Shown here: in pieces, positions 1 through 59,475 of the stretch | Layout of the letters: the number at the start of each line of letters is the position of its first letter | How positions within the stretch are numbered: position 1 is the stretch's first letter | Source of the DNA: a virus | DNA length: 64,000 nt | Virus record (IMG/VR): IMGVR_UViG_3300045988_139374 | Span: 1 to 64,000 of that record | Reading direction: 5' to 3' (one strand) | Position numbers and translations under genes: made by a program | Notes under the pieces: model-generated | Told to the model about the DNA's origin: nothing | The model's input: the letters and a program-made list of their open reading frames with translations, nothing else | The model's database searches: none

Positions 1-18
1 AGAAGCGTCATTCCACAT
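1..18 (-). CDS. first 6 codons (MWNDAS) of a leftward gene of the NDAS...ITCxYWYI cassette family; continues off the window
   Basis: reverse complement of 1-18 is ATG TGG AAT GAC GCT TCT, 16/18 nt identical to the start of the ORF at 1062 (ATG TGT AAT GAC GCT TCT). Confidence 0.35.
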
Positions 19-38
19 TTTAATTATTCTTATTTTCA

Positions 39-86
39 CTTGTATAGTATAAAATTGAAATAGAAGGAAGAAAGAGTACTTCTATT
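39..86 (+). promoter_or_regulatory. degenerate phage promoter box (cTTGTATAGTATAAAATTG) plus 8-bp 5' stem-loop (59-66 / 79-86)
   Basis: resembles the recurrent AGATATTATAATAwTG box; same box-then-hairpin-then-SD layout upstream of the 124 gene. Confidence 0.35.
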
Positions 87-123
87 GGTCGTATAATTTT
101 GATGCAAATAAAGGAGATTTACT

Positions 124-444
124 ATGTCTACTATTAGCAAGAACTTCCGTAATACCATCACTGCAAATGTCATTTCCATGTGTGGAAATGAGCAGCATGA
201 TGTTCATGCTATTCGTACTCGCTTTACCCGCAAGGGTAATAAGTGGGCTAATGTGCTTGATCGCATGATCAGCACTGGCAAAACAAAATCTGGCAAAACA
301 ATGTGTCAGATTTATCGCTATTGCCAAGTATGGCTAAGCGATATTGGAGCAACTGATTTTTGTTGCCCCAAGTTCAACCCCAATGCAAAGTATACAGTGG
401 ATGTAGATGATGAAGGCAAAATCTACATCCACCGTGTAGCTTAA
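124..444 (+). CDS. hypothetical protein, 106 aa, monocistronic, G/C-ending codon bias
   Basis: ORF with AAAGGAG SD 7 nt upstream; followed directly by a terminator. Confidence 0.8.
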   Translation: MSTISKNFRNTITANVISMCGNEQHDVHAIRTRFTRKGNKWANVLDRMISTGKTKSGKTMCQIYRYCQVWLSDIGATDFCCPKFNPNAKYTVDVDDEGKIYIHRVA

Positions 445-448
445 GAAT

Positions 449-488
449 AAAAGGAGTGAGCTATAAACTCACTCCTTTTATTTTTTTT
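449..488 (+). terminator. intrinsic terminator (GGAGTGAG...CTCACTCC plus T8)
   Basis: 10-bp GC-containing stem followed by a T-tract; member of the GGAGTGGG hairpin family. Confidence 0.85.
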
Positions 489-585
489 CAAATAATCTGA
501 CGCTTCTATTAAAATTAAGACAGATACTTGTAAAATTCCAGGAAGTAATATTGCTGCTTATATTCCTAAAAGATGCGTAATTCAA

Positions 586-792
586 ATGTTCCCAATAACT
601 TATCCAAGTGGAAATAAAAATGCTGGATATTACATTGTTCCATTCATCGCAGTATCTGGATATTTTCTTGACGGTGTTTTTCAGGCTACAGGATCTGATG
701 TTTGGATGACAAAAAATGGAACTCTTGCATCTGGTGTATATCAAGATTTTGATAATCTAATTATATGTAAATATTGGTATATAAGCATTTAA
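586..792 (+). CDS. cassette A ORF (68 aa from first ATG; family homology SDASIKIKTDTCKIP extends upstream to 497 with no start codon)
   Basis: no SD before the ATG; the open frame begins right after a TAA at 494-496. Confidence 0.3.
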   Translation: MFPITYPSGNKNAGYYIVPFIAVSGYFLDGVFQATGSDVWMTKNGTLASGVYQDFDNLIICKYWYISI

Positions 793-853
793 TGACGCTT
801 CTATTAAGACAGATACTTGTAAAGTTCCAGATTATAGTACTACAACAGATATA

Positions 854-1069
854 ATGGGAAGACATGTTATTTGGGCTACCATTATAGAGTATCCTAAAAA
901 TGTCAAAGACGTATGGGCGTATGAAATCATATATATTATGACAATTACAGATAGAGATGCTATAATTTATGGAAGCAGAATTGGTATAGCAAAATTATGG
1001 GCTAATGGAGGTTTCTACGACGATTCAAATAATCCAATTACGTGTAAATATGGATATTTAGATGTGTAA
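854..1069 (+). CDS. cassette B ORF (71 aa from first ATG; homology NDASIKTDTCKVPDY extends upstream to 785 with no start codon)
   Basis: no SD; conserved N-terminal box lies upstream of the only ATG. Confidence 0.3.
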   Translation: MGRHVIWATIIEYPKNVKDVWAYEIIYIMTITDRDAIIYGSRIGIAKLWANGGFYDDSNNPITCKYGYLDV

Positions 1070-1361
1070 TGACGCTTCTTTTAAAACTGATACTTGTAAA
1101 GTTCCAGAATATGATTCCGGTGTTACTCTTATAAGTTATAGAGTTGTAGTACAAGTAGCAATAATACAATATACATCTACTAGTATGAATGTCAATGATA
1201 CAGAATATAGATTTCCTATTATATATGCATATGGTACTGCCAATCCTGATATTCCAACTTATCGTTTAATAGTAATATCAAAAAATCCAAGATCTATAGA
1301 ATCCAGTGATATATATCAAGTCACTGGAAGACCTATTACATGCAGATATTGGTATATTTAA
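1062..1361 (+). CDS. cassette C, the only in-window copy with an ATG at the family N-terminus (MCNDASFKTDTCKVPEY...ITCRYWYI), 99 aa
   Basis: full-length ORF; weak or no SD; overlaps the cassette B stop. Confidence 0.5.
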   Translation: MCNDASFKTDTCKVPEYDSGVTLISYRVVVQVAIIQYTSTSMNVNDTEYRFPIIYAYGTANPDIPTYRLIVISKNPRSIESSDIYQVTGRPITCRYWYI

Positions 1362-1442
1362 TTAATATACAATGACGCTTCTATAAAACAACTTAAATTT
1401 ACTACTGGAAGAACAACATTTAAAGGATTTATAGATTATAAG

Positions 1443-1664
1443 ATGATTTACTCAACTGAAGATAGCATCATTCCTATATCTATATACAATGATAATGGTT
1501 CTATTTTGCCTAGCACAGATTCAAATCTAGATAACGTTATTACATTAAATTATTCTTGGTATAAATATAATAAAGTCATGATATATCTTTTATTTGCTCA
1601 AAGAACTTCTACACTCAATTATACCATATCATCATTATTTTCTACGTGTGTCTATTATCTTTAA
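1443..1664 (+). CDS. cassette D ORF (73 aa from first ATG; NDASIKQLKF homology extends upstream to 1362, in frame just after the cassette C stop)
   Basis: no SD; most diverged copy. Confidence 0.3.
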   Translation: MIYSTEDSIIPISIYNDNGSILPSTDSNLDNVITLNYSWYKYNKVMIYLLFAQRTSTLNYTISSLFSTCVYYL

Positions 1665-1672
1665 TATATAAT

Positions 1673-1710
1673 ATAGAGGATAGAGAGTAATCTCTATCCT
1701 CTATTAATTT
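1673..1710 (+). terminator. intrinsic terminator (14-bp perfect stem ATAGAGGATAGAGA / TCTCTATCCTCTAT)
   Basis: perfect hairpin followed by a T-rich tract. Confidence 0.75.
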
Positions 1711-1716
1711 TGATTT

Positions 1717-1738
1717 TTGACTTAGCATCATAATAATT
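1717..1738 (+). promoter_or_regulatory. variant promoter box TTGACTTAGCATCATAATAATT
   Basis: aligns to the consensus TTGAwTAGATATTATAATAwTG with 3 substitutions; sits between terminator and SD. Confidence 0.4.
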
Positions 1739-1754
1739 AGGAGGTTTATATTTT

Positions 1755-2165
1755 ATGGAAAATATTATCACTATAGAATGTATAAAAGGAATAGAACTAG
1801 AAGATCATAAATTATTTCTTGAGAAATGGTCTATTGATGAATTTGTAAAATATTGTATTTTGCAGATAGATTATCTATCATTTCCAAATTCACTTGATTT
1901 TGATCCATCTATAAGAAATACTAAATTTCTATTTTCTAAGACAAGAGGATTATTCTACAACTCAGCTGAAAATTGGAAGAAGATTGAAGATTATTTTAAT
2001 TATCATAAACCAATAATGTATGGTACATATGATACTAGTATAACTAAATCTATTATTATAGAAGATGCTCTTAATGAGAAAATAGATGATGATAATTTTG
2101 ATATGATTCCTAAATTACATGAATTTATTTATATGGAAAGGAGTGTGCCAATAAATGATAGATGA
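1755..2165 (+). CDS. hypothetical protein, paralog family 1 (hxhxExW/Y motif: LFLEKWS)
   Basis: AGGAGG SD; motif shared with the 2155 and 10728 products. Confidence 0.8.
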   Translation: MENIITIECIKGIELEDHKLFLEKWSIDEFVKYCILQIDYLSFPNSLDFDPSIRNTKFLFSKTRGLFYNSAENWKKIEDYFNYHKPIMYGTYDTSITKSIIIEDALNEKIDDDNFDMIPKLHEFIYMERSVPINDR

Positions 2166-2616
2166 TTCTTATTACACTCTTGCAATTACTATACTTAAAG
2201 CTTGTACGTATTATATAGACAAGCATCCATATTCAACATTCTTAGAAAAATGGTCATATCAAGGAAAAGATTTATATTGTATTGGAACTATTCTTTATTA
2301 TGAAAATCCAAATAAAATATTAGCTAAGAAATATAGATATCTTAGTGAGTTTTATAGATCTAATTTCTATTCTAAAGATGAAGCAGAAAAAGATTATAAT
2401 AATAGAATAGAAGATGCAAAACTTAGATATCCTGATGGAATACAAATCTTTGACTTTATAGATGATAATACATTTAATACTCATAGAGAATATTATGTAT
2501 TAAATATGAATCTAAAAAGTATTCTTTGGAAAGATCCGTATGGGCGAATTGATGATACATATGATGATTTTGTAAATGCATGGAATAAGGAGTATAAAAA
2601 TGGAATACAAAATTAA
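2155..2616 (+). CDS. hypothetical protein, paralog family 1 (TFLEKWS; C-terminal KEYKNGIQN)
   Basis: ORF overlapping the upstream stop; family motifs. Confidence 0.8.
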   Translation: MIDDSYYTLAITILKACTYYIDKHPYSTFLEKWSYQGKDLYCIGTILYYENPNKILAKKYRYLSEFYRSNFYSKDEAEKDYNNRIEDAKLRYPDGIQIFDFIDDNTFNTHREYYVLNMNLKSILWKDPYGRIDDTYDDFVNAWNKEYKNGIQN

Positions 2617-3283
2617 AGCACTTAAGGTTTCTAGTATTCGTGGATATATTGTAATTCTAGAGGAATATAGTTTACCTGAAAAATATACTACTTATAGAGT
2701 TCATCTTCATATACCTGGAATTAAGCAAATCTTTAAAGATTATCCATCTACTGCAATTTCTGCAGCCGATAGATATTCTAACTTCAATGATGATTATAAA
2801 CAAATTCTTGATACTTATGCAAATTGGGTAATAGAAATTAATAATATTGATATCGATTCAGATACTATTTCTGCTCTTGAGTATCCTAAATATATAGATC
2901 CAGATGAAAATAAAGTTTATATTCCAAATGGATATTATCTGTTAAGAGGAACTATTGAGCATGATATTGAAGTTTCTATAAATGAATGTGCTGATAGCAA
3001 TGAATACGTATATTCCGGAACTCTGAAATTTGCCAATGGAGATACCTATACTTTTGTATATGATTATGATACAGAAAATGCTGCTGATTTAAAAGACTTA
3101 CTTGCTAATTATATATTTGAATGCTATGATCAAAATGGAAACTATATTAATTGCTATGATGTATTTGAAAATCATGGATATAATGCTGATACATTTGGTA
3201 GTATCATTGAAGATATTCTAAATGAAGCAGTAAATGATTTTCGTGAAAAGAGTAAGGAGAATAAAAATGGAAGTACAACTTAA
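2600..3283 (+). CDS. hypothetical protein, paralog family 1 (start MEYKIKAL)
   Basis: AAGGAG SD embedded in the C-terminal codons of the upstream gene; 17-nt overlap; the track ATG at 2576 lacks an SD. Confidence 0.75.
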   Translation: MEYKIKALKVSSIRGYIVILEEYSLPEKYTTYRVHLHIPGIKQIFKDYPSTAISAADRYSNFNDDYKQILDTYANWVIEINNIDIDSDTISALEYPKYIDPDENKVYIPNGYYLLRGTIEHDIEVSINECADSNEYVYSGTLKFANGDTYTFVYDYDTENAADLKDLLANYIFECYDQNGNYINCYDVFENHGYNADTFGSIIEDILNEAVNDFREKSKENKNGSTT

Positions 3284-3629
3284 ATCTATTAAGAATGAAC
3301 TTCATAGATGCTCTGTTGTAGATTATACAGAAGAATCTGTAATGTGCATTATTAAGGATGAGCATACTAGAAAATGCATCATTGAAAGACACACTAGTAA
3401 ATATACTACATATAAAAATACACAAGATAATTTTATATTTAAAGACGGTAATGATAATATCATTGGAGGTATTAATTGTAATATATACCCTGGTACAAGA
3501 TCTTATGAGATTGTAAAAGAATTACCCTATGAGTATATTGGTCAGATGGATTTTATAGTATTTCTTTTAATGCATATTTATTATAATCCTGCATGGAAAG
3601 TATTTATGGTACTTAATAATGAAGATTAA
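3267..3629 (+). CDS. hypothetical protein (start MEVQLKS), paralog of the 3619 product
   Basis: AAGGAG SD inside the upstream C-terminus, same junction layout as at 2600; shared ELPxExIGxMxFDFI motif. Confidence 0.75.
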   Translation: MEVQLKSIKNELHRCSVVDYTEESVMCIIKDEHTRKCIIERHTSKYTTYKNTQDNFIFKDGNDNIIGGINCNIYPGTRSYEIVKELPYEYIGQMDFIVFLLMHIYYNPAWKVFMVLNNED

Positions 3630-3972
3630 ATTAGAGCTTAGATATCAAGCAAATATTAGAATATCAAATGGTCGTGTTAAAGGCCAATTTGCATATATCA
3701 CAATAAATGATAAGAAATATAAAATCTCAAGATGTGTATCTCATAAATGCAAATTTAATGATGACAAGATGTATATGCTTTACACATTAGAAGATTCTAA
3801 TGTTTTAGGATTTATCAGTATTAGATCTGATGAGACTAGTATAAAGCCTATAGGAAATATACAAGAATTTCCTAAAGAAATCATTGGTGATATGAGCACT
3901 TTTGATTTTATTATGGATTATATTGATAAAGATGAAGCGTGGAATCAAAAAGCATGTGAGGAGGAAAAATAA
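3619..3972 (+). CDS. hypothetical protein, paralog of the 3267 product
   Basis: ORF overlapping the upstream stop; motif EFPKEIIGDMSTFDFI. Confidence 0.75.
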   Translation: MKIKLELRYQANIRISNGRVKGQFAYITINDKKYKISRCVSHKCKFNDDKMYMLYTLEDSNVLGFISIRSDETSIKPIGNIQEFPKEIIGDMSTFDFIMDYIDKDEAWNQKACEEEK

Positions 3973-4383
3973 ATGAGAAAAGATTTCTTAATGGTAGGAG
4001 ATAAATTTTGGTATAATATCAAAGGATCTTATTATCCGTATATCATGGTAAAACTCGGTAATGATAAACAAGTATTATTTCCAGTAGAAAAAGATTCTCC
4101 TGTACTTAATATTTCTAGTATAGATGATAATAAGATGACTGTTATTTATCTTAGTAGCAAAAATAGATATTATAGATATTATAAAATGCTAGAAGATATT
4201 GCACCTAAAATCGAAGGATACAATCGTATTACTCTTCCTGATAAACTATTTAAAATCTGTACGGAAGTTACTGAACAAATGTGCGATACAAGGCTTCCAG
4301 AAAATGAAGCCGATGAAGAGAATATGATTAAAGTATTTTGTCGTACAGAAATTGATAGAATGCTAGTAAGGCAATATAATTAA
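3973..4383 (+). CDS. hypothetical protein, 136 aa
   Basis: GAGGAGGA SD; ATG directly after the upstream stop. Confidence 0.8.
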   Translation: MRKDFLMVGDKFWYNIKGSYYPYIMVKLGNDKQVLFPVEKDSPVLNISSIDDNKMTVIYLSSKNRYYRYYKMLEDIAPKIEGYNRITLPDKLFKICTEVTEQMCDTRLPENEADEENMIKVFCRTEIDRMLVRQYN

Positions 4384-4387
4384 AAGC

Positions 4388-4424
4388 ATTCCGGAAGAGT
4401 ATAATCTCTTCCGGAATTATTTAT
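4388..4424 (+). terminator. intrinsic terminator (ATTCCGGAAGAG / CTCTTCCGGAAT)
   Basis: 12-bp stem plus T-rich tail. Confidence 0.8.
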
Positions 4425-4425
4425 T

Positions 4426-4473
4426 TTGATTAGATATTATAATATTGATAAAGACAAATAGTTTCTTTATCAA
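4426..4473 (+). promoter_or_regulatory. phage promoter box TTGATTAGATATTATAATATTG plus 5' stem-loop (4445-4453 / 4465-4473)
   Basis: consensus box copy; the hairpin starts at the conserved terminal TG. Confidence 0.7.
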
Positions 4474-4506
4474 AGTCTAAAAATCTTTATAAGGAGGTCC
4501 AAAATT

Positions 4507-5811
4507 ATGGACATCAGCAAAATGAACAAAATTTTTATCGATAGCGAATTAAAAAATAGTCAACGGGATATATTATTAAGCAGAATAATGAATACCAATG
4601 ATGATAATGATGTAAGCATGTATTTACGTGACCAATATATAATACAGCAGTTTATTGGAAATACTGCTGTAATTACTGGTCGTGGATCTTTTATCGTTAT
4701 CACACATATTGATCATGATAATGTATCAATTATGGTTGGAGGAACTGATCCTAGACGTAATTATAAAATTACTTCTTATGTGGATAAAGATACGTATTCT
4801 ATCAAAGATATATATGCCCAAGATATTAGCTATTTGCTTAATAAGAAAACTGTGATTATAGATGAGAACTATACTGATGATTATATTAGATGGACGCTTG
4901 CTGGCATAATTATCCAATTTCATGTCCTTGCTATGCATCCAGAATATTATGATCAAAAAGTTGTATATGCTAAAAATACCAGTAAGAAAGGAAATAAAGC
5001 TCCACATAGAGTAATGGAATATAGATTAAATAAAAGATATTTTATTAATGACTATATTGGTGCTAGATACTCTAAGTGGGATAGAATTTCTATTGGAAAT
5101 AACTATAATTTATACGATCCTAATAATATTCTTACTCCAGTATTTCCTCTTCAACATGGAGTTATCACTTCTGGATTTGAAAATCTCACATCTAGACAAG
5201 ATGATAGAGCTGCAATTTCCAGAAATATAACAATGAAATTAGCAATTGCATTTAATGTAATTACTAAATCCACAATTTCTATTAAAGCATATGCTTTAAA
5301 TATTGATGGCAAAGGAGAGATTATTTCAAACTGTATTTATGATTTTAAGTCAGACACTTTTGAAAGAATATCTGATGACAATTTTGTCGATACAATAAAA
5401 GCAAATGTTTCAGAAGTCATTGATGAAGCTGGTGATAATGATATTATTCATCTTTGCATCGATGTACTGAAGTATATGGCTTATCATGTAGAACTCGTTT
5501 CCAAAAAGGATGTAGTTACTGGATCTATTGAAAGTTCTAGTAACTATACTCCCAAAGCAAATGATAAGCCTCGGTTTGAGACTAGTATCTGCTCTCATAA
5601 GGTATATGGAATTACTAAGAAAATAATTCCTGTTACTGAAGCAGAAGCTAAGGAGAAACGGAAATATACGCCTTGCCAGTATGCTGTTACTGTCAAGGGC
5701 CATTTCCGTCATTATAAATCTGGCAAGGTAATCTGGGTTGAACATTTTATCCGTAATAAAGATAAAGAATTTAAACCTAAAGATTATGTTGATAAAAAGA
5801 AAGAAGGCTAA
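4507..5811 (+). CDS. hypothetical protein, 434 aa
   Basis: AAGGAGG SD; monocistronic between promoter box and terminator. Confidence 0.85.
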   Translation: MDISKMNKIFIDSELKNSQRDILLSRIMNTNDDNDVSMYLRDQYIIQQFIGNTAVITGRGSFIVITHIDHDNVSIMVGGTDPRRNYKITSYVDKDTYSIKDIYAQDISYLLNKKTVIIDENYTDDYIRWTLAGIIIQFHVLAMHPEYYDQKVVYAKNTSKKGNKAPHRVMEYRLNKRYFINDYIGARYSKWDRISIGNNYNLYDPNNILTPVFPLQHGVITSGFENLTSRQDDRAAISRNITMKLAIAFNVITKSTISIKAYALNIDGKGEIISNCIYDFKSDTFERISDDNFVDTIKANVSEVIDEAGDNDIIHLCIDVLKYMAYHVELVSKKDVVTGSIESSSNYTPKANDKPRFETSICSHKVYGITKKIIPVTEAEAKEKRKYTPCQYAVTVKGHFRHYKSGKVIWVEHFIRNKDKEFKPKDYVDKKKEG

Positions 5812-5817
5812 TTATAT

Positions 5818-5859
5818 AAAAGGAGTGGGTTTTATTTGCCCACTCCTTTTATTTTTTTT
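5818..5859 (+). terminator. intrinsic terminator AAAGGAGTGGGTTTTATTTGCCCACTCCTTT plus T-tract
   Basis: near-identical to the terminator at 14965-15008. Confidence 0.9.
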
Positions 5860-5873
5860 ATAATTTTATATTA

Positions 5874-5920
5874 TTGATTAGATATTATAATAATGGAGAT
5901 AAAGAATATATTTTATCTCC
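5874..5920 (+). promoter_or_regulatory. phage promoter box TTGATTAGATATTATAATAATG plus 5' stem-loop (5895-5903 / 5912-5920)
   Basis: exact consensus copy. Confidence 0.7.
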
Positions 5921-5965
5921 AAGTCATTTTTATTCATTCATCCATAATATAGGAGGTAAATTATT

Positions 5966-6790
5966 ATGGGACGTATCAAAGATATCAGCAATGCCTCTGG
6001 CATCAATATTCACGTTACGAAGGAATTTGTGCGTGATAATGATGCAAAGATCGTTGTTGGTGAGTTGACCAACTGGTTCGGTGATAATACTGGTCCTGAC
6101 TGGGTTAATCTCACTATGAACAAGGTCGGAGAAATCACCGATTTCAACTTCTACTTCACTGAAGCTGAGGCAGCAAATTTCTCTGGCATCAAATTCAACA
6201 ACGTTGATCATGATATTACGATCGATTATCATGGTCAGGTCGAAAGCATCACTGGCTGGGGCCGTGATGACTGTACCACATATAATTTCCAGACATCTGT
6301 ATTGGATAGCTACATGTACTATGAAGCTATCTACGTTGACAATATTGATATTATCATTAATGGCAATAATTTTGCTATCAGTGGTAATGTATTTGATATT
6401 ACCAATGATGAGCTGTTGTTCCATTTTACAGCTGTTCCTGGAATCAACAGCTATGACATCGATTACTATACCTGTGATGGCAAGAAGATCGATGCTCTTG
6501 GGATGGCTAATATCGAAGCCAGCAAAATTTGTGGTGCTGGCAATGAGGATGTAGATAATGCTATCTACTATGTGATTTCCAGCAAGATTTACGATGCCAT
6601 GATCGAGACTCTTCCGATCTCGATTTTATTTAAAGTGTGCTATGGTGTTAATGATGCGCACAAAAAGAATCCTAATGCTCCGACTGCAAAGGAGTATATC
6701 AAGGAGCTGTTCAATGATGGTGCCATCGATCGGTTCCTTGCAGAGTTTATGATGTCTTTGATTGGCAAATACGGAAACATCCGCACCTAA
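5966..6790 (+). CDS. hypothetical abundant protein, 274 aa (G/C-ending codon bias, monocistronic)
   Basis: AGGAGG SD; flanked by promoter box and terminator; codon usage unlike neighbours. Confidence 0.85.
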   Translation: MGRIKDISNASGINIHVTKEFVRDNDAKIVVGELTNWFGDNTGPDWVNLTMNKVGEITDFNFYFTEAEAANFSGIKFNNVDHDITIDYHGQVESITGWGRDDCTTYNFQTSVLDSYMYYEAIYVDNIDIIINGNNFAISGNVFDITNDELLFHFTAVPGINSYDIDYYTCDGKKIDALGMANIEASKICGAGNEDVDNAIYYVISSKIYDAMIETLPISILFKVCYGVNDAHKKNPNAPTAKEYIKELFNDGAIDRFLAEFMMSLIGKYGNIRT

Positions 6791-6801
6791 TTTGATCTAT
6801 A

Positions 6802-6846
6802 ATACCAGTAGAGTTGGAGGACTCTACTGGTATTTATTTTTTATTT
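6802..6846 (+). terminator. intrinsic terminator (ATACCAGTAGAGT / ACTCTACTGGTAT)
   Basis: 13-bp stem plus T-tract. Confidence 0.85.
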
Positions 6847-6851
6847 TTATA

Positions 6852-6893
6852 TTCAGGCAGATATTATAATAATGGTAAAGAAGATATCTTTAC
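6852..6893 (+). promoter_or_regulatory. phage promoter box (GCAGATATTATAATAATG) plus 5' stem-loop 6875-6893
   Basis: core box identical to consensus; the upstream TTGA part is diverged. Confidence 0.65.
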
Positions 6894-6928
6894 TATATAT
6901 CTTTTATAAAATAGAAAGGATGTACACT

Positions 6929-7720
6929 ATGATTACAGATGCTAGGATTCATGATCTGAAACGAAAACTTGTTAAAGGCCATAAGATTACCCTTCAGGAG
7001 TGGGTAAATAAAACCGACAAAGATATCTGCAGATATCTTGTCTTGGATGATATCTTACGATATCATGAGATTCCTTCTTCTACCCCTAGATATGAAGTCT
7101 TCAATTGCAGTACCTATGGATTCTTTGATAAAATTGAAGATGCAGAAAAGAAATATGAAGACATTATTTCTCAATATGCAAATATCAATCTTGTAACCTT
7201 TAGAGATGCTGCTCCGAGTTTCACCTCTAAAGGAAACGATTTTGATCTTATTTCTGCAAAAGAAATGTTTACCTGTGATGAATTCTATGTAGACTTCTAT
7301 ATGATCGAGCCCAGTGTCATGATGCTTTTGAGCAGTGTTATTACAGCATTCGATAACGAGGAATATACTGTGAATATCAGCTTCAATTTCGCTAGATCGA
7401 ATGATGTTTGTATTGCTCACAATTATATCATCATTGATATCGTAGATGCAGATGGAAATCTTGTTGTAAAACATTCTTGTGATCTCGATATTGATCGTAT
7501 TAAGTCTAGATCTAAAAAGGCAAATGGTAGATATCTTATTAATGCTATCACACCTAAGGATTATCATGTCTATGCTTCTTACGATAGAAACTGTAAGGCA
7601 AGTGATGAATTCATTAAGAAGTATAATGTAGATCCTGTGTATCTTTGCAATTATGTAATTACACAAGCAATTCCTACTATCATGACTACTCATAATAACA
7701 AAATTAAAGAAGGAGAATAA
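6929..7720 (+). CDS. hypothetical protein, paralog family 1 (start MITDARI; alternatives at 6920 or 6872)
   Basis: GAAAGGA SD 8 nt upstream of 6929; the track start at 6872 lies inside the promoter/hairpin. Confidence 0.7.
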   Translation: MITDARIHDLKRKLVKGHKITLQEWVNKTDKDICRYLVLDDILRYHEIPSSTPRYEVFNCSTYGFFDKIEDAEKKYEDIISQYANINLVTFRDAAPSFTSKGNDFDLISAKEMFTCDEFYVDFYMIEPSVMMLLSSVITAFDNEEYTVNISFNFARSNDVCIAHNYIIIDIVDADGNLVVKHSCDLDIDRIKSRSKKANGRYLINAITPKDYHVYASYDRNCKASDEFIKKYNVDPVYLCNYVITQAIPTIMTTHNNKIKEGE

Positions 7721-7722
7721 TT

Positions 7723-8496
7723 ATGAACTTCACTCACACTAGCATTATCAATTCCATCTTTATCAATGGTCACTATTTGACCATTTTTGAACTGGATTAT
7801 TATACTAACAGCAATCATCCTAGATATATTTTCCAGGATGCAGTGTATGATCATGTAGCAGTTCTCAGTGCTAATGGACTCTTATCTTATAGTCCTGTGT
7901 ATACTCCGCTTTATACTTCTCGTGCTTATAAAAAGTATGAAGATGCTCTTCCTGAATATCAGGCTTTCTATGATATTTATCAAAAGACTCCTGATCCTAC
8001 TACCAATATTAGGTCCAAAGCTGGCTTTGGTACTGAAGTATCTAGAATGTACTTTGATGAAATCGCAAAAGAAGTAATTGGAGTAAATGATACAAGCAAT
8101 ATCAAGTTTGATGAACCTACCAGCAATTGTCCTGCATATGTAGAAATTAATTTCTTTATCTGCGGGCATGGATACACGGCATGTGTTTATATTTCTACTG
8201 ATAAATTGTCTGGTACTATCATTTCCAATATTATGGATAATAATGATGGTAGTAAGCATATTACCGGTCATGGTAAATTCTATATTGGGTATGATGCAGA
8301 ATGTGGTTGCTCTATTGGAGCTGATAATTCCATTTATGCTGGGAAAGATCATGATATGGATGATGGTAAGAGTACTCTTGATTTTATGAATGAACAGGGT
8401 ATTCCTACTGATACTGTATTCCGGTTCATCCATCGTAAAGCACTTGATGTCTTTACCAGATATTTTATCAGTAAGGAGAATAAGAAAAATGGCTAA
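7723..8496 (+). CDS. hypothetical protein, paralog family 1 (HPRYIF; C-terminal SKENKKNG)
   Basis: AAGGAG SD; motifs shared with the 8489 and 6929 products. Confidence 0.8.
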   Translation: MNFTHTSIINSIFINGHYLTIFELDYYTNSNHPRYIFQDAVYDHVAVLSANGLLSYSPVYTPLYTSRAYKKYEDALPEYQAFYDIYQKTPDPTTNIRSKAGFGTEVSRMYFDEIAKEVIGVNDTSNIKFDEPTSNCPAYVEINFFICGHGYTACVYISTDKLSGTIISNIMDNNDGSKHITGHGKFYIGYDAECGCSIGADNSIYAGKDHDMDDGKSTLDFMNEQGIPTDTVFRFIHRKALDVFTRYFISKENKKNG

Positions 8497-9788: not shown

Positions 9789-10715
9789 ATGCCATATACA
9801 GTTAAGCAAATCTCTAATTTACTAAATGTAGATCCAGAGACTGTTAGACGATGGATAAGACGAGGAGATCTGAAGGCTACACAAAGATCTAAGAAAGATG
9901 GAAATGTAATATCTGAAGATCAGTTAAATGAATTTTTAATATCTCGTCCAAAATATTCTCAAATTAAAATTAAGCCATCAAAAGTTAAAAAAGTAAAAGT
10001 TATAATTCATAAGTCTAAGAGGAGAAATAAAGCTATGATGAATGTACTAAATGCTTCTGATACTACCATTATCTCTTATGATAGCTCTGTTGCTACTAAG
10101 AGATTTATTACCAATAATGACCTTGGTAAAACCTTGGCCTTTGGTGGTAACAATCCTGCCCCGAGTGCATTGCTTGCTACCTTGCTTCGCACTGCTACTC
10201 TTAAAGCAGCACGTGAACTTGCAGAATATCGCAGAACTCATCCTGCGACTGTGAAAGATGATGATTATTATCGCCATCTTGAGTTTGGTCATCAGTCTTA
10301 TAGAATGGATGGCTGTGGCTATAAGACTATATTCTTCAATGTTGATATTACTGATGTTAAGGATATCAACAAGGTGAATGAATTCATTAACAGCTGTGCA
10401 AATATCAGCTCTGATGAGTTTAAAAAGTATATGGCAGATACCACTAAGTCTGAAGAATATATGCTGAAGATGAATTTTGGTATCAACTTTGGTGATCAGC
10501 CGGATTATGATGTATTTAATCCTGCTGCTGGTCAGTATGAGGTGATTAAATACCTTGTAAAATGTGTTCTGCTTGATATGCGTCATGCATTTATGCAGAA
10601 TAAGGGCCTCAGATATATCTCTTTTGAAAATAATAAGGATCCTGAATCGATTTATATTATTGCAGAAAAGAAATATACTGACAAGAATATTGTTACTCTT
10701 ACCATTGGTGCCTAA
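9789..10715 (+). CDS. DNA-binding protein with an N-terminal MerR/excisionase-type HTH
   Basis: N-terminus YTVKQISNLLNVDPETVRRWIRRGDLKA matches the excisionase-family HTH pattern; the C-terminal part resembles downstream paralogs. Confidence 0.7.
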   Translation: MPYTVKQISNLLNVDPETVRRWIRRGDLKATQRSKKDGNVISEDQLNEFLISRPKYSQIKIKPSKVKKVKVIIHKSKRRNKAMMNVLNASDTTIISYDSSVATKRFITNNDLGKTLAFGGNNPAPSALLATLLRTATLKAARELAEYRRTHPATVKDDDYYRHLEFGHQSYRMDGCGYKTIFFNVDITDVKDINKVNEFINSCANISSDEFKKYMADTTKSEEYMLKMNFGINFGDQPDYDVFNPAAGQYEVIKYLVKCVLLDMRHAFMQNKGLRYISFENNKDPESIYIIAEKKYTDKNIVTLTIGA

Positions 10716-10727
10716 GGAGGTATAAAA

Positions 10728-11396
10728 ATGGAAATCAAAGTTGAAGTGCTCGATACTAGAATGGTCAACGGTCATCTTATTGAGCTTGAGCATTGGTCCA
10801 CTACAGCAGCAAATCCTGAGCATAGCCTTTCTAAATACACAGTGCATGATCGCATTTATTATGCACTTGGTCATATCATCAAGGAGTTATCTACTCCGAA
10901 ATTTGTTTCTGAAAAAGAAGCAAGAAGAATGTTTGAGGAGTGTATCCTTGAATATTCTAAATTCAATGTAGGCGGTCCTCAAGCAATTAGGAAAAAGGAT
11001 CGTGTGCTCACTACTGCTGAATGCGAGATTGATGATCAGTATTATAATAAATTTATTGATCTCAATACCAATTGGGATTTCAGCAATTTTACTATTAATA
11101 AAGATCTGACCAACTCTGAAGACGATGCTACTGTAAATTTTGTAGTTACTATTAATAACAATAAATTTACTGGCAGATGTCACCTTTACGATTTTCTGAG
11201 GCAAGATACTACTATTATCGTAGTTGATACATCTAAAATCATCAATCTCACTGAATATATGGATAATGTAGACAGAAATGGTAGATATCCTGGATTCTTT
11301 GAGAAGAATTATGGTGTATCTGATGAGCTTCTGAGAGATGATATCATTTCCAAAGTTAAAGCATTTTTGAGAGGAGAAGATCCTAATGAGTTTTGA
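10728..11396 (+). CDS. hypothetical protein, paralog family 1 (LIELEHWS)
   Basis: AAGGAGG SD; family motifs. Confidence 0.8.
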   Translation: MEIKVEVLDTRMVNGHLIELEHWSTTAANPEHSLSKYTVHDRIYYALGHIIKELSTPKFVSEKEARRMFEECILEYSKFNVGGPQAIRKKDRVLTTAECEIDDQYYNKFIDLNTNWDFSNFTINKDLTNSEDDATVNFVVTINNNKFTGRCHLYDFLRQDTTIIVVDTSKIINLTEYMDNVDRNGRYPGFFEKNYGVSDELLRDDIISKVKAFLRGEDPNEF

Positions 11397-14954: not shown

Positions 14955-14964
14955 TCTTTAATAT

Positions 14965-15008
14965 AAAAGGAGTGGGTTTCATTTGCCCACTCCTTTTATT
15001 TTTTTTTT
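14965..15008 (+). terminator. intrinsic terminator AAAAGGAGTGGGTTTCATTTGCCCACTCCTTTT plus T-tract
   Basis: near-identical to 5818-5859. Confidence 0.9.
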
Positions 15009-20108: not shown

Positions 20109-20155
20109 AACCTGATTGGGTTTATATTTTTTCATCTAAAAAAGGAGATAATATT

Positions 20156-20938
20156 ATGGCACTCGGTGGAAACTACAATTCTCAGAATAATGGAAACAAT
20201 GGTCCCAACAATCCCACTTATTATTCTCGCCTGCGCATCAAGAACTATGAAAACCACACTATGCTGTCTTTCAATTATTGGAAAGGAACTTTGAAGATTA
20301 TTATCACTGAGCCTTCTGATAATAATAGTAACAGTCGTCCTAATGAACTTGCATCGATTTATATGTCTCCCACTAAAGCTCGCATTCTTGCAGAAGGCGT
20401 TGCACGTATCATTTCTTCTAGAGAAGATAAGGTATATGGTGTTGACACTGGTACTGGCAATATTAAGGGCTTTATTGCAATTGGTCGTTCTAAGGGTGAT
20501 CCGTTCCTCTTTATCGGTAAGGTAAATGCAGATGGTAAGTATGAATTGAATCAGACTTTCAATTTCAATATCAATAGCAATTTCTTGTTCGATGTTAAGG
20601 ATCTTGCAAATATTAAGTTCCAGAAGGAAGCTCTTGAGAATGTTGAACTTCAGGAGTTTATGGATCTTCTGAATGATTATGCAAGAGCAGCTTCTGGTGC
20701 AATTGCTGCTAGTGTGCATGATATTAACTTCTACGAAAATAACAGATTCACTGGTCTGGTTCGTAGTATTGCTAATAAAGTTGGTGCTGGTAACGGTGGT
20801 AACAATAATGGCGGTGGCAATAATCATTTCTTTGATAATGCCAACAGTGAATATTCTGAACCTTCTCATAATTCTCAGAATAATGCTCGTACTAATCGCT
20901 ATGAAAACATCGACGATCTCGAGGATGCACTGGAGTAA
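20156..20938 (+). CDS. probable single-stranded DNA-binding protein
   Basis: start MALGG with AAAGGAG SD. N/G-rich linker and acidic C-terminal tip (DDLEDALE). G/C-ending codon bias. No direct motif proof. Confidence 0.45.
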   Translation: MALGGNYNSQNNGNNGPNNPTYYSRLRIKNYENHTMLSFNYWKGTLKIIITEPSDNNSNSRPNELASIYMSPTKARILAEGVARIISSREDKVYGVDTGTGNIKGFIAIGRSKGDPFLFIGKVNADGKYELNQTFNFNINSNFLFDVKDLANIKFQKEALENVELQEFMDLLNDYARAASGAIAASVHDINFYENNRFTGLVRSIANKVGAGNGGNNNGGGNNHFFDNANSEYSEPSHNSQNNARTNRYENIDDLEDALE

Positions 20939-20944
20939 TTAATT

Positions 20945-21625
20945 ATGCCTGAAGGAAATAACAATCTAAACGGACATGTTGTAAATTCTGTAATAGATTT
21001 CAATATGATTGTCAATACTGACATTGGATTGATTAAATTCATTCAGGATAGTTATCAAGATAATAGGGTTTTTAAGTTAGAGGATATAAATAGGAGTGAT
21101 AGAGAGATTCTGTCACTCCTATATTCTCGTAAGAATCCAAATCCTTTGTCAGAATTTGTTAATGAAGAATTTATTGGAGAAATTGATTCTCTATATAAAT
21201 CTTTCTTTGATTCTTATAAGCAAGAAATTCTCGACCACTCTATTATTTTTAGCAATATTTACAAATTTGTAAGTATGGCTACTGCAAATGGTATTAATCT
21301 TGGTATTAATACAGCTATTGCAATTAGAGATGATCTAGAAGAAAAAGAATTAGATAAGCATTTTAATATTGCTAATTTTCTTAATAAAGATTCCGATAAA
21401 TCTTTAATTATAAGAAGAGAAGCATTTTACATAAATGATTATTTATTTTTTAATAAGAATAGAGAAAAGATTCTTCATAAAAAGATTTACATAACTCCTA
21501 TGCAATATAATTTAGATTTCCTTGAACAGGATAAATCTAAATTTGTTACCCAAAATCAATTTATTTTCTTTGGAGAAGATTTTAAACCAAAAGGAGAAAA
21601 CAATGATGGCACCGAGCAATCTTAA
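20945..21625 (+). CDS. hypothetical protein, 226 aa
   Basis: ORF with GGAG SD. Confidence 0.8.
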   Translation: MPEGNNNLNGHVVNSVIDFNMIVNTDIGLIKFIQDSYQDNRVFKLEDINRSDREILSLLYSRKNPNPLSEFVNEEFIGEIDSLYKSFFDSYKQEILDHSIIFSNIYKFVSMATANGINLGINTAIAIRDDLEEKELDKHFNIANFLNKDSDKSLIIRREAFYINDYLFFNKNREKILHKKIYITPMQYNLDFLEQDKSKFVTQNQFIFFGEDFKPKGENNDGTEQS

Positions 21626-23438
21626 CCGTGTTACATTTGATAGTGTGAATAATGTTGTTAAGGGTGAAAGACTTCGTGAAGTTCAGAAGAAGGTTCTTTC
21701 TGATCTTGCAGAAGCTATTATTCCTTCTATGGGCCCTGCAGGTTCTAACTCTCTTGTTATCAAGGGTAGCTCTGAAGCAGATATTGTTGCAGAGTACACT
21801 AAGGATGGTAATAAGATCATTAAGAGTGTAAAGTATCAAGAGCCTATTGAAATGGCTATTAAGTCTGAAATTGAAAATGCTACTCGACATATTGAAAAGG
21901 TAGTTGGAGATGGTACTTCTTCTGTTGTTGTGATGGCTCATAATATTTTCGATGGTCTTTGCACTGCTGATGAAGAAGGTAAGCTTCCTTCTAATCCTTA
22001 TGAGACTATTAGAGTCTTTAAGGATGTTGTAGCAAAGCTGTCTGAGAAGATTCGCAAAAAGGGTCATGAGTGCACTCTAGAAGATATCTACAATATTGCA
22101 TATATTTCTACAAATGGTAATGAATATATTGCAGATACTCTTAAAGACATCTATGCTCAGTATGGAATGAATGTTTTCATTGATGTTTCTGCATCTACTA
22201 ATGAAAATACTTATATTAAGAGCTATGATGGCGTAACTATCGAGTCTGGTTACTCAGATCCTGCAATGATTAATAATCTGGATAGACATTCTTGTATCAT
22301 TCATTCTCTTAAGGATTCTCCTATTCGCATTTATCATTTTGCAGAAGCTATTGATACTCCTGAACAGCTTGCTATGTTCCAGAAGATTATTGAGACCAAT
22401 GTAGTTGATAAGTATTCTCGTAGAATGCAGGCTATTCCTACTGTTATTTTCGTTCCTCAGATTAGTCGTGATGCTCAGGCTTATATGCGTAGAATCACTC
22501 AGATGCTTCTTCAGTTCCCTGAGTCTGCATATTCTCAGAAGCCTCAGCTTTTGATTGTTACCAATTATATTGGTCTCAATGAGAATTATATTGATTATAT
22601 TTCTCAGCTCTGTGGCTGTACTCCTATTAAGAAATATATCGATGAAAAGATTCATAAGCAGGATCAGGAGAATGGACTTGCTCCTACTCTAGATAATGTA
22701 TGTGATAATTTCTTTGGAAGTGCAACTGAAGTAGAAGCAGATGAATCTCGCACTAGAGTCATTGATCCTGCTCTTATGTACAAGAAGGATTCTGATGGCA
22801 ATATTGTACTTGATGAAAATGAAAAACCTATTCTGAGTGATACTTATAATAGCATCGTGAATTTTATTCAGGCTCAGTATAACAGTGCAGCTTCTCAGGG
22901 TGGTAATGCTGGTACTCTTGGCTCTCTTAAGAGACAGCTTAATGCTATTCGCTGTAATATGATTGAAATCTTTGTCGGTGGTATTTCAATTTCTGATAGA
23001 GATTCTCTTCGTGACCTTGTTGAAGATGCAGTTCTAAACTGCAGATCTGCAGCTAAGAATGGTGTTGGATTCGGTGCCAATGCTATGGGCTATAATGCTC
23101 TTAACGATGCTGTTATCGATAGTTCCTATAGCAATTCTGATATTGAAACTAAAGAGTGTGCAGATGCAATTATCAATATTCTGTATGATGCTTATAATGA
23201 AACTATTAAGCACTTGTATCAGACTAAATATGATAGTAGTAGTGTTATTAGCATCCTTGCAAATATGTGTGAAAATGGTATTCCTTACAATATGAATACT
23301 AATAAATATGATAATAAGGTTCTTACGTCTATTGAGTCTGAACCTATGATTCTTGACACTATTGCCAAGATTATCACTATCATGTTTACTGCAAATCAGG
23401 CAATTCTTCAGACTCCTTCTCTGGCAATGCATTATTGA
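21603..23438 (+). CDS. GroEL-like (Cpn60 family) chaperonin
   Basis: GPAGSN...TKDGN...VVGDGTSSVVV aligns with GroEL GPKGRN...TKDGV...AGDGTTTATV; start at MMAPSNL with AAAGGAG SD. Confidence 0.8.
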   Translation: MMAPSNLNRVTFDSVNNVVKGERLREVQKKVLSDLAEAIIPSMGPAGSNSLVIKGSSEADIVAEYTKDGNKIIKSVKYQEPIEMAIKSEIENATRHIEKVVGDGTSSVVVMAHNIFDGLCTADEEGKLPSNPYETIRVFKDVVAKLSEKIRKKGHECTLEDIYNIAYISTNGNEYIADTLKDIYAQYGMNVFIDVSASTNENTYIKSYDGVTIESGYSDPAMINNLDRHSCIIHSLKDSPIRIYHFAEAIDTPEQLAMFQKIIETNVVDKYSRRMQAIPTVIFVPQISRDAQAYMRRITQMLLQFPESAYSQKPQLLIVTNYIGLNENYIDYISQLCGCTPIKKYIDEKIHKQDQENGLAPTLDNVCDNFFGSATEVEADESRTRVIDPALMYKKDSDGNIVLDENEKPILSDTYNSIVNFIQAQYNSAASQGGNAGTLGSLKRQLNAIRCNMIEIFVGGISISDRDSLRDLVEDAVLNCRSAAKNGVGFGANAMGYNALNDAVIDSSYSNSDIETKECADAIINILYDAYNETIKHLYQTKYDSSSVISILANMCENGIPYNMNTNKYDNKVLTSIESEPMILDTIAKIITIMFTANQAILQTPSLAMHY

Positions 23439-28910: not shown

Positions 28911-29232
28911 GTACGTTATTTATCATTTGACCTCTGATGGAAAAACCCAGAACTTTGCAGATGCTATTGCATCATATACTGATCTTGGTGCATTCCTTAG
29001 TGCCATGGATCAGCTTAGTAGTATGGTTTTTTCCATTAGAGATAGATATGTGAAAGAGGGTAATCTTGATAATCTTGTTAAGAACCCTCCCATTATTGTC
29101 TACTCGTATTTCGGGTATGAAGACATTGGAAGCAATGCCATGCATGATAGTGGTAATATGCTTGGAAAATTAAAAAGCATAAGTATCAATATCAATGGCG
29201 TTGATCATACCTATAAAGGTATGATTGTCTAA
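28903..29232 (+). CDS. hypothetical protein, 109 aa
   Basis: GGAGGAGG SD; overlaps the upstream stop. Confidence 0.8.
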   Translation: MSEYVIYHLTSDGKTQNFADAIASYTDLGAFLSAMDQLSSMVFSIRDRYVKEGNLDNLVKNPPIIVYSYFGYEDIGSNAMHDSGNMLGKLKSISININGVDHTYKGMIV

Positions 29233-29239
29233 AAGAATA

Positions 29240-29279
29240 AGGGGAGTGGGCTTTATGCTCACTCCCTTTTATTTTTTTT
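29240..29279 (+). terminator. intrinsic terminator (GGGAGTGGGC / GCTCACTCCC plus T-tract)
   Basis: GGAGTGGG hairpin family. Confidence 0.85.
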
Positions 29280-29347
29280 CTATTTACCGTTGTTAAACCA
29301 TGAAAACTGAACAGTTTAATAACAATTAAAAATGGGAGGTTTTGAAC

Positions 29348-32984: not shown

Positions 32985-33157
32985 TCATTTATTATTAATT
33001 TATCGTAACTAATAAATAAAATATTTGCAAGAAACCTCTCTAATTCTTGCTTATATCTTTAAAACCCTTTATACAAAAAATAACTAAAATATTTTCGATT
33101 TACTATTTGTCACGTCCTTCAAATAGTAAGTCATAAATTATCAAGGAGGATAACCAA

Positions 33158-42307: not shown

Positions 42308-42634
42308 TAAGATGAATAAAATATGGCTCACGTTAAATTGCTTAAATTGCGGGGACAATCCCATAACCTTAGTCGACTACAACGTAATCAGAAATGATAA
42401 GCGTGATAGTGGCATGAGTTTTGAACTCAACAGCTTGAAATATAGTAGAGACCATAAGAACTGACTAAGCTAGGATCAACCGAGTGTGCAAGTCACTCAG
42501 ACGCAGCGAAATCTTCTATAGAAATATAGGTGAGACGTTCAACGACTATAATAGCAATAAGTTTAGTATTTTACTAAATGATAAGGTATAGTCTACTCCC
42601 GTACTTAAATATCGGGAAACCGAGGGTAGAAAGG
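42308..42634 (+). ncRNA. group I self-splicing intron, ORF-less, 327 nt
   Basis: follows a U and ends with G. Internal guide AATATG-GCTCAC (42320-42331) pairs with the 5' exon GTGGGT (P1, U-G at the splice site) and the 3' exon ATATT (P10). Removal restores RRTCG-YIGTQFWNQGRTEEIKDRVLHL. Confidence 0.85.
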
Positions 42635-47507: not shown

Positions 47508-47530
47508 ATTTTATAAAAGGAGATAAACAA

Positions 47531-57716: not shown

Positions 57717-57723
57717 TTAATAT

Positions 57724-57768
57724 AAACGTATAGTAGATTTCATGTCTACTATACGTTTTATTTTTTTA
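57724..57768 (+). terminator. intrinsic terminator (AAACGTATAGTAGA / TCTACTATACGTTT)
   Basis: 14-bp stem plus T-tract. Confidence 0.85.
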
Positions 57769-57770
57769 TT

Positions 57771-59286: not shown

Positions 59287-59475
59287 ATGAGTATTGATGT
59301 TTATAATATATCTCCAGAAGAATTGAATGAAATGCTTCAAGATATAAGGGAAACAAATAGAAAGGTATGTAAAAATCCTCAGATCTTTAGTCAGTATGAT
59401 GATTATAGCTCAGAAACTGTAGAATTTGAAGATCTTGATCTCTCAAATATAGAAAAGGAGAATAAGAAAGAATGA
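59287..59475 (+). CDS. hypothetical acidic protein, 62 aa
   Basis: AAAGGAG SD; ATGA overlap with the next gene. Confidence 0.7.
   Translation: MSIDVYNISPEELNEMLQDIRETNRKVCKNPQIFSQYDDYSSETVEFEDLDLSNIEKENKKE

Follow-up and report, generated by a model that had tools for sequence, protein, structure and literature searches.

In Neisseria pilE/pilS and Borrelia vlsE, silent copies donate sequence by non-reciprocal gene conversion into a fixed locus, and Mycoplasma pulmonis vsa switches by site-specific inversion. The head swapping of lactococcal receptor-binding proteins (RBPs) and the His-box recombination of T-even gp37/gp38 are exchanges between phages over evolutionary time. Shufflons and invertible fibre segments (R64 Rci/pilV, Mu Gin, P1 Cin, p15B Min) act by inversion between inverted sites at one compact locus with a fixed constant part; conservation in the R64 sfx sites is confined to the core and a single arm. 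Inversion-type switching in phages is further known from the Rin shufflon of Bifidobacterium prophages (PMC6109161) and from programmed gene-altering inversions (PMC9881135). Here, we analysed 64,000 nucleotides of viral DNA (positions 1 to 64,000 of IMG/VR record IMGVR_UViG_3300045988_139374; hereafter the window), which carry at their left end an array of start-less open reading frames (ORFs), termed head cassettes A to E. The evidence below suggests that these units are probably a silent archive of receptor-binding heads of a ∼270-kb human-gut jumbo phage, in which a head would be switched on by site-specific insertion of a mobile shaft cassette directly upstream.

All five units share a box whose 10-mer, TGACGCTTCT, encodes xDAS and occurs on the plus strand at 498, 793, 1070 and 1373 and on the minus strand at 1-10, with no other copy in the 64 kb. 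The cassettes are:

1..10 (box), minus strand: head cassette E, reading leftward off the window; ATG at 16-18 (reverse complement)
496..792, plus strand: head cassette A; frame 1, box at 498-507, TAA immediately 5' of SDAS; hidden Markov model (HMM) E=1e-41
791..1069, plus strand: head cassette B; frame 2, box at 793-802, start-less
1068..1361, plus strand: head cassette C; frame 3, box at 1070-1079, in-frame ATG at 1062 formed by the last codons of B
1371..1664, plus strand: head cassette D; in frame with C, box at 1373-1382, start-less, of another head family; HMM E=4e-63

A sequence-only reading of this DNA had described four direct units and an inverted copy at the edge with a shared box, and this observation was confirmed. 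The reverse complement of positions 1-18 is ATGTGGAATGACGCTTCT, and a longer contig (L001, 72 nt further leftward) continues unit E as MWNDASTKIYKMEINYAYKAFSAGIDYIKI. The direct units translate as SDASIKIKTDTCKIP...IICKYWYISI (A), NDASIKTDTCKVP...ITCKYGYLDV (B), NDASFKTDTCKVP...ITCRYWYI (C) and NDASIKQLKF...STCVYYL (D). Translation also bore out the claim that a stop codon lies 0-3 codons before the conserved N-terminus of A, B and D: the distances to the xDAS codons are 0 (A), 2 (B) and 3 (D) codons, with no ATG, GTG or TTG in between, and none of units A-E has a conserved start codon or a Shine-Dalgarno (SD) sequence. The array-internal stops of A and B, both TAA, abut the TGA of the next box. 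Unit C had been singled out as the only one with an ATG; this is true among A-D, but the ATGs of C and E are missing at the orthologous sites in relatives (for E, in an alignment with L125 and L116) and are, because of this lack of conservation, incidental.

Similarity between the boxes of B and C, noted earlier, extends over 41 nt with 3 mismatches, where no match is expected by chance, and the junction regions around them, 733-835 and 1010-1112, share 78% identity across 103 nt. The unit interiors had been called almost unrelated. At the DNA level this holds, but as proteins A, B and C form one family with 31-43% identity. The tandem array was not detected by TRF, and an HMM search of the window with unit profiles returned these copies only. 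The shorter core TGACGCT has three extra copies in the window (24082 and 31902 on the minus strand, 45624 on the plus strand), which lie within unrelated genes and show no cassette features.

As protein modules, the units bear signs of selection. Compared with the orthologous cassettes of a 273.6-kb relative (L005), dN/dS is 0.68 for A, 0.30 for B and 0.23 for D. Structure prediction of the ∼95-amino-acid (aa) unit, which had been proposed as a check, gave a confident result: the AlphaFold2 model of unit A, built from 20 sequences, is a six-strand beta-sandwich with a predicted local distance difference test (pLDDT) of 93.8 and a predicted template modelling score (pTM) of 0.82. Foldseek searches with this model against PDB and BFVD yielded nothing significant (best E=0.33-0.74; the weak top matches include trimeric lectins), and neither the units nor their neighbours matched Pfam, PHROGs or NCBIfam. 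A profile search retrieved 24 homologues without Pfam domains, several of them on contigs of 86-274 kb. The N-terminal extensions that gene callers assign to these homologues are mutually unrelated (MTKILLYVDIGILIY-, MLMYFIFSKY-, MVLVQICYTFKQ- and others) and represent read-through from the preceding unit in another frame or from the terminator T-run; no start is conserved among them. IMG/VR scanned with the A/B/C protein profile gave no yield; scanned with a 14-base box it gave mostly chance matches, plus the relatives L078 and L116.

To place the units among their relatives, box-led ORFs of at least 60 aa were counted at eight loci of ∼200-290-kb relatives together with the window. Free-standing units, not fused to a shaft, make up 41 of the 45, and 31 of these 41 have no in-frame upstream Met at all, the other 10 having a non-conserved Met only. 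With body lengths of ∼70 to ∼290 aa, they belong to many unrelated families; a truncated remnant of 32 aa is present in L125. One relative uses AGT in place of TCT for the Ser of DAS (TGACGCTAGT), so the motif would appear to be selected as protein as well as DNA.

What these heads attach to is seen in relatives. In L125 (271.7 kb), an SD-bearing gene of 245 aa (7740-8477, minus strand) has the box inside its coding sequence and is directly followed by start-less cassettes. Its product reads MSIIDKIKVGSTTYDV...GKAAANHSHKVAQLPTSS...ALIYSMNQTLTSL/NDASIKLKYD...FYIKHNMYYQ (slashes mark borders here and below). A box copy inside an SD-bearing tail-fibre gene, which the sequence-only reading had suggested looking for, is therefore present in relatives, and there is none in the window. 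The gene (MAIIDKIKVGSTTYDV...) starts with a conserved 137-aa N-terminus, the shaft, which meets the head at ...TLTSL/NDAS. Over residues 1-107, the shaft shares 56% identity (E=1e-35) with the N-terminus of a nearby 797-aa protein with Phage_fiber_rpt (PF22337), and the shaft carries a GKAAxNHSH motif, pointing to homology of the constant part with a bona fide phage tail fibre (HxH-repeat, Phage_fiber_rpt).

We next turned to homologues of the L125 fusion protein, of which 136 were found at E ≤ 0.001 and the best 120 were inspected. The junction ...L(T/N)SLN(D/N)A(S) is kept in 113 of these 120; the first ∼137 aa are ∼50-97% identical to the query (most 75-97%), and the remainder is wholly different. 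The 113 distinct fusion proteins have total lengths of 142-429 aa, and clustering gives at least 25 unrelated head families. Among them, the A/B/C family of the window occurs shaft-fused in P0042, P0063 and P0098, with 53-60% identity to A and C, unit C being 60% identical to the head of P0098. Other head families that are found both fused and start-less include ...ARVYYI, the 290-aa ...GLRPLIYIR and IKKL...NIIYI, besides others. In a full HMMER scan, the shaft domain appeared in 495 clusters (50% level), the distant members of which retain the SLNDA junction. As head families of the window are fused to the shaft in relatives, the window units appear to be C-terminal heads of a short modular tail fibre, stored without their shaft. 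The heads are presumably receptor-binding.

Both states of one head can be compared between L129 and L132, which are 96.4% identical over 9.7 kb. The head at the same locus (93.8% nucleotide identity) is start-less and stands behind another head cassette in L129, and is shaft-fused in L132, with homology beginning exactly at the box (239 aligned to 4564). Each of the four genomes seen across the region has exactly one shaft-fused head. The in-frame fusions and the L129/L132 pair support the earlier proposal that the units are silent cassettes of a variable module, such as a receptor-binding tip, that would recombine with an expressed, SD-bearing tail-fibre gene carrying the same box.

The shaft is itself part of a bounded unit. 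This shaft cassette of 942-944 bp has TGACGCT at both ends and consists of a ∼530-bp upstream region, an SD, an ATG and 137 codons with no stop codon. Pairwise comparison of L131, L125 and L133 showed a ∼960-bp block (the shaft plus ∼530 bp upstream) at three different genomic positions: behind a long fibre gene and before the 290-aa head in L131, between another cassette and the NDASIKLKYD head in L125, and, in L133, in an array of opposite orientation beside an RNA-polymerase subunit gene, before an A/B/C-type head. The left end always reads /TGACGCT/ATTACGAAGTAGTC (/TGACGCT/ATTACGAAG) and is preceded by four unrelated flanks (...caatagtc, ...acataaa, ...tttatagtc and ...tgatagtc); the right end is always ...CTTCGCTAAA/TGACGCT/head, with CTAAA before the core. 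The earlier notion of cassettes that feed an expressed locus elsewhere would need changing in one respect: the cassettes do not seem to be copied into a fixed place, as the expression module is itself a box-bounded cassette found before different heads at different loci.

Several forms of the site were recovered. An empty site is found in L125r at 5562 (caataatc/TGACGCT/agtaataaactc). The occupied site in L131 reads caatagtc/TGACGCT/attacgaag at 9469 and cgctaaa/TGACGCT/tctaataagc at 10411, 942 bp from core to core. Contig L134 (MEGAHIT k141, 1085 bp) contains the shaft cassette only, with the junction cgctaaa/TGACGCT/attacgaag, and its exact 141-nt terminal repeat indicates a 944-bp cycle. 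In this closed form, imperfect inverted arms of ∼17-21 nt surround the core (TCAGACTCTAACTTCGCTAAA versus the reverse complement TCAGACTACTTCGTAAT), which is how a tyrosine-recombinase site is laid out. Cassette borders account for 53 of the 55 TGACGCT sites in ∼115 kb of relatives. Empty, occupied and closed (or tandem) forms are all present, and these would be the three expected of conservative site-specific recombination.

The shaft cassette has two further peculiarities. In L135 (contig ERZ27271590 k95_34715), a hybrid gene at 933-1364 with a strong SD combines a long-fibre-type N-terminus (MASVNKVKVETDIY...) with a C-terminal part that is shaft sequence as far as the box; a shaft cassette begins directly 3' of this gene, and the truncated product ends in ...SLNDAITK before a stop codon. 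This position indicates that the shaft cassette can sit behind another shaft-type gene. In addition, an internal inverted core (...AATC/TGACGCT/ACT) lies ∼160 nt 5' of the shaft ATG and is conserved in five sequences, at positions that include:

L131 9831-9840, minus strand: internal inverted core
L125 8639, plus strand: internal inverted core
L132 4001, minus strand: internal inverted core
L134 930, minus strand: internal inverted core

Were inversion to take place between this internal core and the junction box, the promoter-shaft segment (∼570 bp) would be turned round and the shaft joined to a tail of 38 aa (DATTFNGLDMDL...); the internal site may be an additional on/off switch.

A candidate enzyme is encoded nearby. 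Beside the fibre genes, 4-11 kb from the shaft, L125, L131 and L133 carry a gene for a 329-aa tyrosine recombinase, whose best matches are XerA/XerC/XerD models. It reaches none of the NCBIfam cutoffs, and stays far below that of the integron-integrase model TIGR02249 (101.8 bits, cutoff 265); on NF011946 it scores 70.9 (cutoff 435). Taken together, the data suggest a model in which each cassette unit would begin at the neck/head junction (xDAS, nnT GAC GCT TCT) and end at its own stop codon. As unfused heads have no promoter, SD or start, they would be silent, and a head would be made only when the shaft cassette lies directly upstream; because the shaft cassette has no stop codon, translation would then cross the box into the next head and give a shaft-NDAS-head product. 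The shaft cassette, and probably the heads too, would be excised as circles and re-inserted at any box by conservative site-specific recombination, with TGACGCT as the site and most likely the Xer-like tyrosine recombinase as the catalyst; owing to the polarity of the core, insertion would work in arrays on either strand. Excision followed by re-insertion at another box would switch the expressed head. One genome would thereby represent a library of heads, and the population could switch receptor specificity, possibly frequently, with a change in host range. A bolder version, to which we give an even chance, is a 'reverse integron': the Xer-like recombinase would move a ∼0.94-kb circle with promoter and N-terminal half before any of dozens of scattered start-less heads, each time creating a new in-frame fibre, with on/off inversion at the internal inverted site as a possible addition.

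With integrons, this arrangement shares co-oriented cassettes without expression signals of their own, each bounded by a recombination site, as well as a one-site circular form (L134, for which a tandem copy is possible), an Xer-related tyrosine recombinase and, in the model, expression of only the cassette next to the expression signals. In contrast to integrons, the mobile decider would here be the promoter with the 5' part of a gene and not (only) promoterless cassettes, which moreover lack even a start codon and would be expressed as in-frame fusions. The recombinase of the relatives falls short of an IntI-type integrase (101.8 bits against a cutoff of 265), and the carrier is a virulent-looking jumbo phage with arrays at several loci. 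Sites of the attC type, that is, imperfect inverted repeats of 57-141 bp, are not what borders the cassettes: the borders share a core of 7-10 bp, TGACGCT(TCT), and an A/T-rich right arm, a repeat search of the window found no inverted repeat at cassette ends, and palindromic arms occur only at the circle site of the shaft cassette.

Shufflons and the present system have in common a constant N-terminus to which alternative start-less C-termini are joined in frame (here in 113 fusions), a crossover site inside the coding sequence at the constant/variable junction, and a site pattern of one core and one conserved arm. They differ in that the sites here are direct, the heads are dispersed over arrays, the constant part relocates, genomes differ by insertion and excision instead of inversion isoforms, and there are at least 25 head families. 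Promoterless, start-less variable copies with conserved borders and Cys-flanked variable cores, one of them joined to expression signals, recall silent-cassette antigenic variation. In contrast to pilS, vls and vsa, it is whole modules that appear to be joined, at a 7-bp core, and the moving part is the expression module; the system is moreover carried by a virus and acts on a putative receptor-binding protein. Instead of a single fixed expression locus, the shaft is found before different heads at at least three distinct loci (L131, L125 and L133; also L132). As in phage RBP head swapping, a conserved neck separates a constant shaft from exchangeable heads, whereas here each genome would have its own silent archive and a dedicated, bounded expression cassette. 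The pattern is also not that of a diversity-generating retroelement (DGR), as the unit interiors are unrelated and not near-identical; no pair of template and variable repeats was seen, the RVT_1 genes of L128 and L131 lying near an RNA-polymerase subunit gene. The literature searched, the coverage of which was incomplete and does not prove absence, turned up inversion shufflons in phage fibres and nothing like the present system, which we would class as programmed recombinational switching of an adhesin tip, apparently in a novel form.

A number of observations weigh against this model. The evidence for the mechanism is comparative and comes from metagenome assemblies; for the window, the mechanism is an extrapolation from relatives with which it has cassette families and gene X (see below) in common. 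A tblastn search of the 64-kb window found no shaft, long fibre gene or recombinase; the shaft locus and recombinase of this phage are probably located immediately beyond its left edge. Among the best 120 of the 136 homologues, no fused head of the D or E type was seen. The L134 circle rests on one short-read contig, and a tandem duplication of the shaft cassette gives the same graph cycle. Furthermore, the 7-bp core may not be the whole site: at the first site of each array, in relatives as in the window (493-497), a semi-conserved (A/G)TC stands left of the core (ATAATC, ATAGTC, TAAGTC...). Array-internal sites have the left flank xAA, usually the upstream stop TAA, and first sites follow a terminator or intergenic DNA. 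These two left-flank classes suggest that the recombination site extends 3-6 nt left of the core. Finally, the recombinase is tied to the cassettes by proximity only, and not every difference between strains maps to the core. The same array is present on short contigs from four human-gut assemblies. Between strains, cassette content differs at box boundaries: A-B-C-D in the window, another head followed by A-B-D in L005, and B-C-D in L003. Unit A is missing from L003, where the A-specific ATTAAAATTAAG and the B-specific GTTCCAG delimit the crossover. This point falls within the extended 40-nt box common to the A/B/C heads, so that the loss reflects ordinary homologous recombination in that box and not recombination at the 7-bp core. 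Likewise, unit A of the window and of L005 is a mosaic with an identical interior and diverged ends.

The L003 crossover, the mosaic unit A and a recombinase linked by proximity would all be expected if there were no dedicated switching, the box being simply a conserved neck at which co-infecting phages occasionally swap heads over evolutionary time by homologous or microhomology exchange, with unfused heads as leftovers that are being lost. We regard this explanation as unlikely, though it deserves serious attention. It does not readily account for unrelated flanks that share just the 7-bp core, repeatedly and precisely, for the closed 944-bp cycle of the shaft cassette or for the palindromic arms at the circle site; moreover, leftovers should gain stops and frameshifts, whereas 41 start-less ORFs are intact and under purifying selection. 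Loss of function in its strict form, decaying tandem paralogues that have become pseudogenes without starts, had been raised by the sequence-only reading and deserves practically no credence. The missing start codons and SDs and the truncated 32-aa remnant in L125 would suit it, but dN/dS below 1, the confident predicted fold and the frames kept intact in 41 free copies across diverged genomes show that the units are not decaying genes, and the same heads occur as fusions elsewhere.

Alternatively, the units might each be translated independently, by reinitiation at TAATGAC, from a non-AUG start or as a +1 frameshift polyprotein. At array-internal junctions the upstream TAA does abut the box TGA, the reading frame moves by +1 from each unit to the next, and the T before GAC is invariant although the residue it helps to encode varies (S/N/T/F/Y), so that the +1 frame reads NTG and the +2 frame TGA. 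However, a start at this NTG would be out of frame with the head, and most first-in-array sites have CTG there; the first units come after a terminator, which leaves no upstream partner for coupling, and a shaft-less head would have no evident attachment to the virion. As in-frame shaft fusions already explain the conserved N-terminus, coupled reinitiation is unnecessary as an explanation, and we consider independent translation improbable. Specific routes of this kind were tried and rejected. The order of frames (1 to 2 to 3) would suit +1 frameshifting at TAA/TGA, yet the codons in the P site ahead of the stops (AUU, GUG, AUA) are not slippery and first units come after terminators. Initiation at the NTG in the box (ATG/CTG/TTG, +1 frame) followed by a -1 shift would need a slippery sequence that is present in unit C only (T_TTA_AAA). 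Against translational bypassing that departs from gene X stands L005, where the GCT take-off and landing codons do not match as they do in the window; around a resume context like that of transfer-messenger RNA (AUAGUC/GCA versus ATAGTC/TGACGCT) a tRNA-like domain would not fit; if a TATAAT-like element in the T-run gave rise to a leaderless mRNA, that mRNA would have no 5' AUG; and stop-codon reassignment would need both TAA and TGA, with no tRNAs in the window. Even less probable, in our estimate, is an inversion shufflon of the R64, Mu, P1 or p15B type, in which a recombinase would use the inverted box at 1-10 and the direct boxes to flip segments onto a fixed constant gene. One window box is indeed inverted relative to the other four, the shaft cassette has its conserved internal inverted core, and arrays occur on both strands. 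Yet the boxes are all direct within each array, the gene X segment has the same orientation in the orthologous L131 region, direct-orientation insertion or excision accounts for every difference observed between genomes, and no flipped isoform was seen among the compared genomes, leaving no sign of the inversional switching that had been suggested. Insertion of the shaft cassette before stored heads thus remains our preferred model.

The surroundings of the array comprise the following features:

19..123, no strand assigned: intergenic region between the leftward array and gene X; the stretch ...TTTTATACTATACAAGTGAAAA... is conserved (alignment with L125 9762 and L116 5889)
124..444, plus strand: gene X, 106 aa, Cys-rich, with SD; between two divergent cassette arrays, not a cassette
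443..485, plus strand: intrinsic terminator of gene X, 18-bp stem and T-run, immediately 5' of A
1673..1704, plus strand: terminator hairpin closing the array; no box after the last cassette

The conserved stretch TTTTATACTATACAAGTGAAAA looks promoter-like and may act as a promoter. Gene X, which has no family match in Pfam, PHROGs or NCBIfam, shares 53% identity with an L131 gene of 146 aa, which also lies, in the same orientation, between a minus-strand and a plus-strand cassette array, ∼7 kb from the shaft and ∼12 kb from the recombinase gene. The hairpin and T-run at 443-485 confirm that the array starts directly after an intrinsic terminator. Near-identical intrinsic terminators (AAAAGGAGTGGG...CCCACTCCTTTTATTTTTTTT) are found in the window at 452-485, 5816-5860, 14963-15007, ∼29230-29280 and ∼57720-57770, the copies at 5816 and 14963 differing by 1 base in 37 nt; such dispersed repeats could offer homology for rearrangements. 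A hairpin element specific to the box was considered and rejected, as the hairpins belong to ordinary terminators and are found away from cassettes as well (5816, 14963, 29267 and 57756). Rfam gave sub-threshold matches on the terminator only (window 1-2000), megablast of window 1-8000 against GenBank phages gave no match, and no tRNA genes were found in the 64-kb window.

The remaining genes of the window have jumbo-phage replication and nucleotide-metabolism functions, with products listed as a Cpn60-like chaperonin (21522-23438), NrdD (anaerobic ribonucleotide reductase; 40168-42315), an RNA-polymerase beta-like fragment (Rpb2 domain 6; 47498-49771), an NAD-dependent DNA-ligase-like protein (49923-52298) and an SMC/RecN-like ATPase (59472-62237). 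A 530-codon ORF on the minus strand (33131-34723) is antisense, over nearly its full length, to a 584-codon ORF on the plus strand (33158-34912), and further long antisense ORFs are present in the window, for example at 7055-7693, 10047-10874 and 20132-20869. In relatives, a gene for a giant protein (∼3,430 aa; Peptidase_C39_2, CHAP and lysozyme domains) lies within a few kb of the arrays (L125 1-4840, minus strand; L131 20871-21272, plus strand). RVT_1 and HNH/NUMOD4 endonuclease genes lie beside RNA-polymerase subunit and dCMP-deaminase genes in some relatives and not in others (L128 5090-6376 and 1423-2160; L131 12388-13779); these insertions are probably mobile introns or retroelements unrelated to the cassettes.

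Assemblies tend to break at the cassettes. The window and contig L002 both begin at the first base of the inverted box, and L129 and L130 begin exactly with TGACGCTTCT. In sample ERZ28595964, the array forms a separate 1,844-bp scaffold that starts from window base 1, and a 269,204-bp scaffold of the same phage begins at about window position 1790, inside the gene at 1755-2165, indicating that the assembly graph branches on both sides of the array. These breaks fit structural heterogeneity within the sample but do not prove it.

If the model is correct, it would represent a new viral way to store and deploy receptor specificities: dozens of complete tips would be kept silent and the front half of the gene would move, as opposed to mutating one tip, as DGRs do, or flipping among a few, as in Mu, P1 and the shufflons. 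It would account for the apparently untranslatable ORFs of gut jumbo phages to which gene callers give junk N-termini and would offer an explanation for the assembly breaks at cassette loci. With its 7-bp junction, 137-aa anchor and heads of ∼70-290 aa, the system could be a natural plug-and-play scaffold for host-range engineering, and the recombinase, given its short site, may prove useful as a tool. For uncultured gut phages, long-read viromes would make host-range bet-hedging directly testable.

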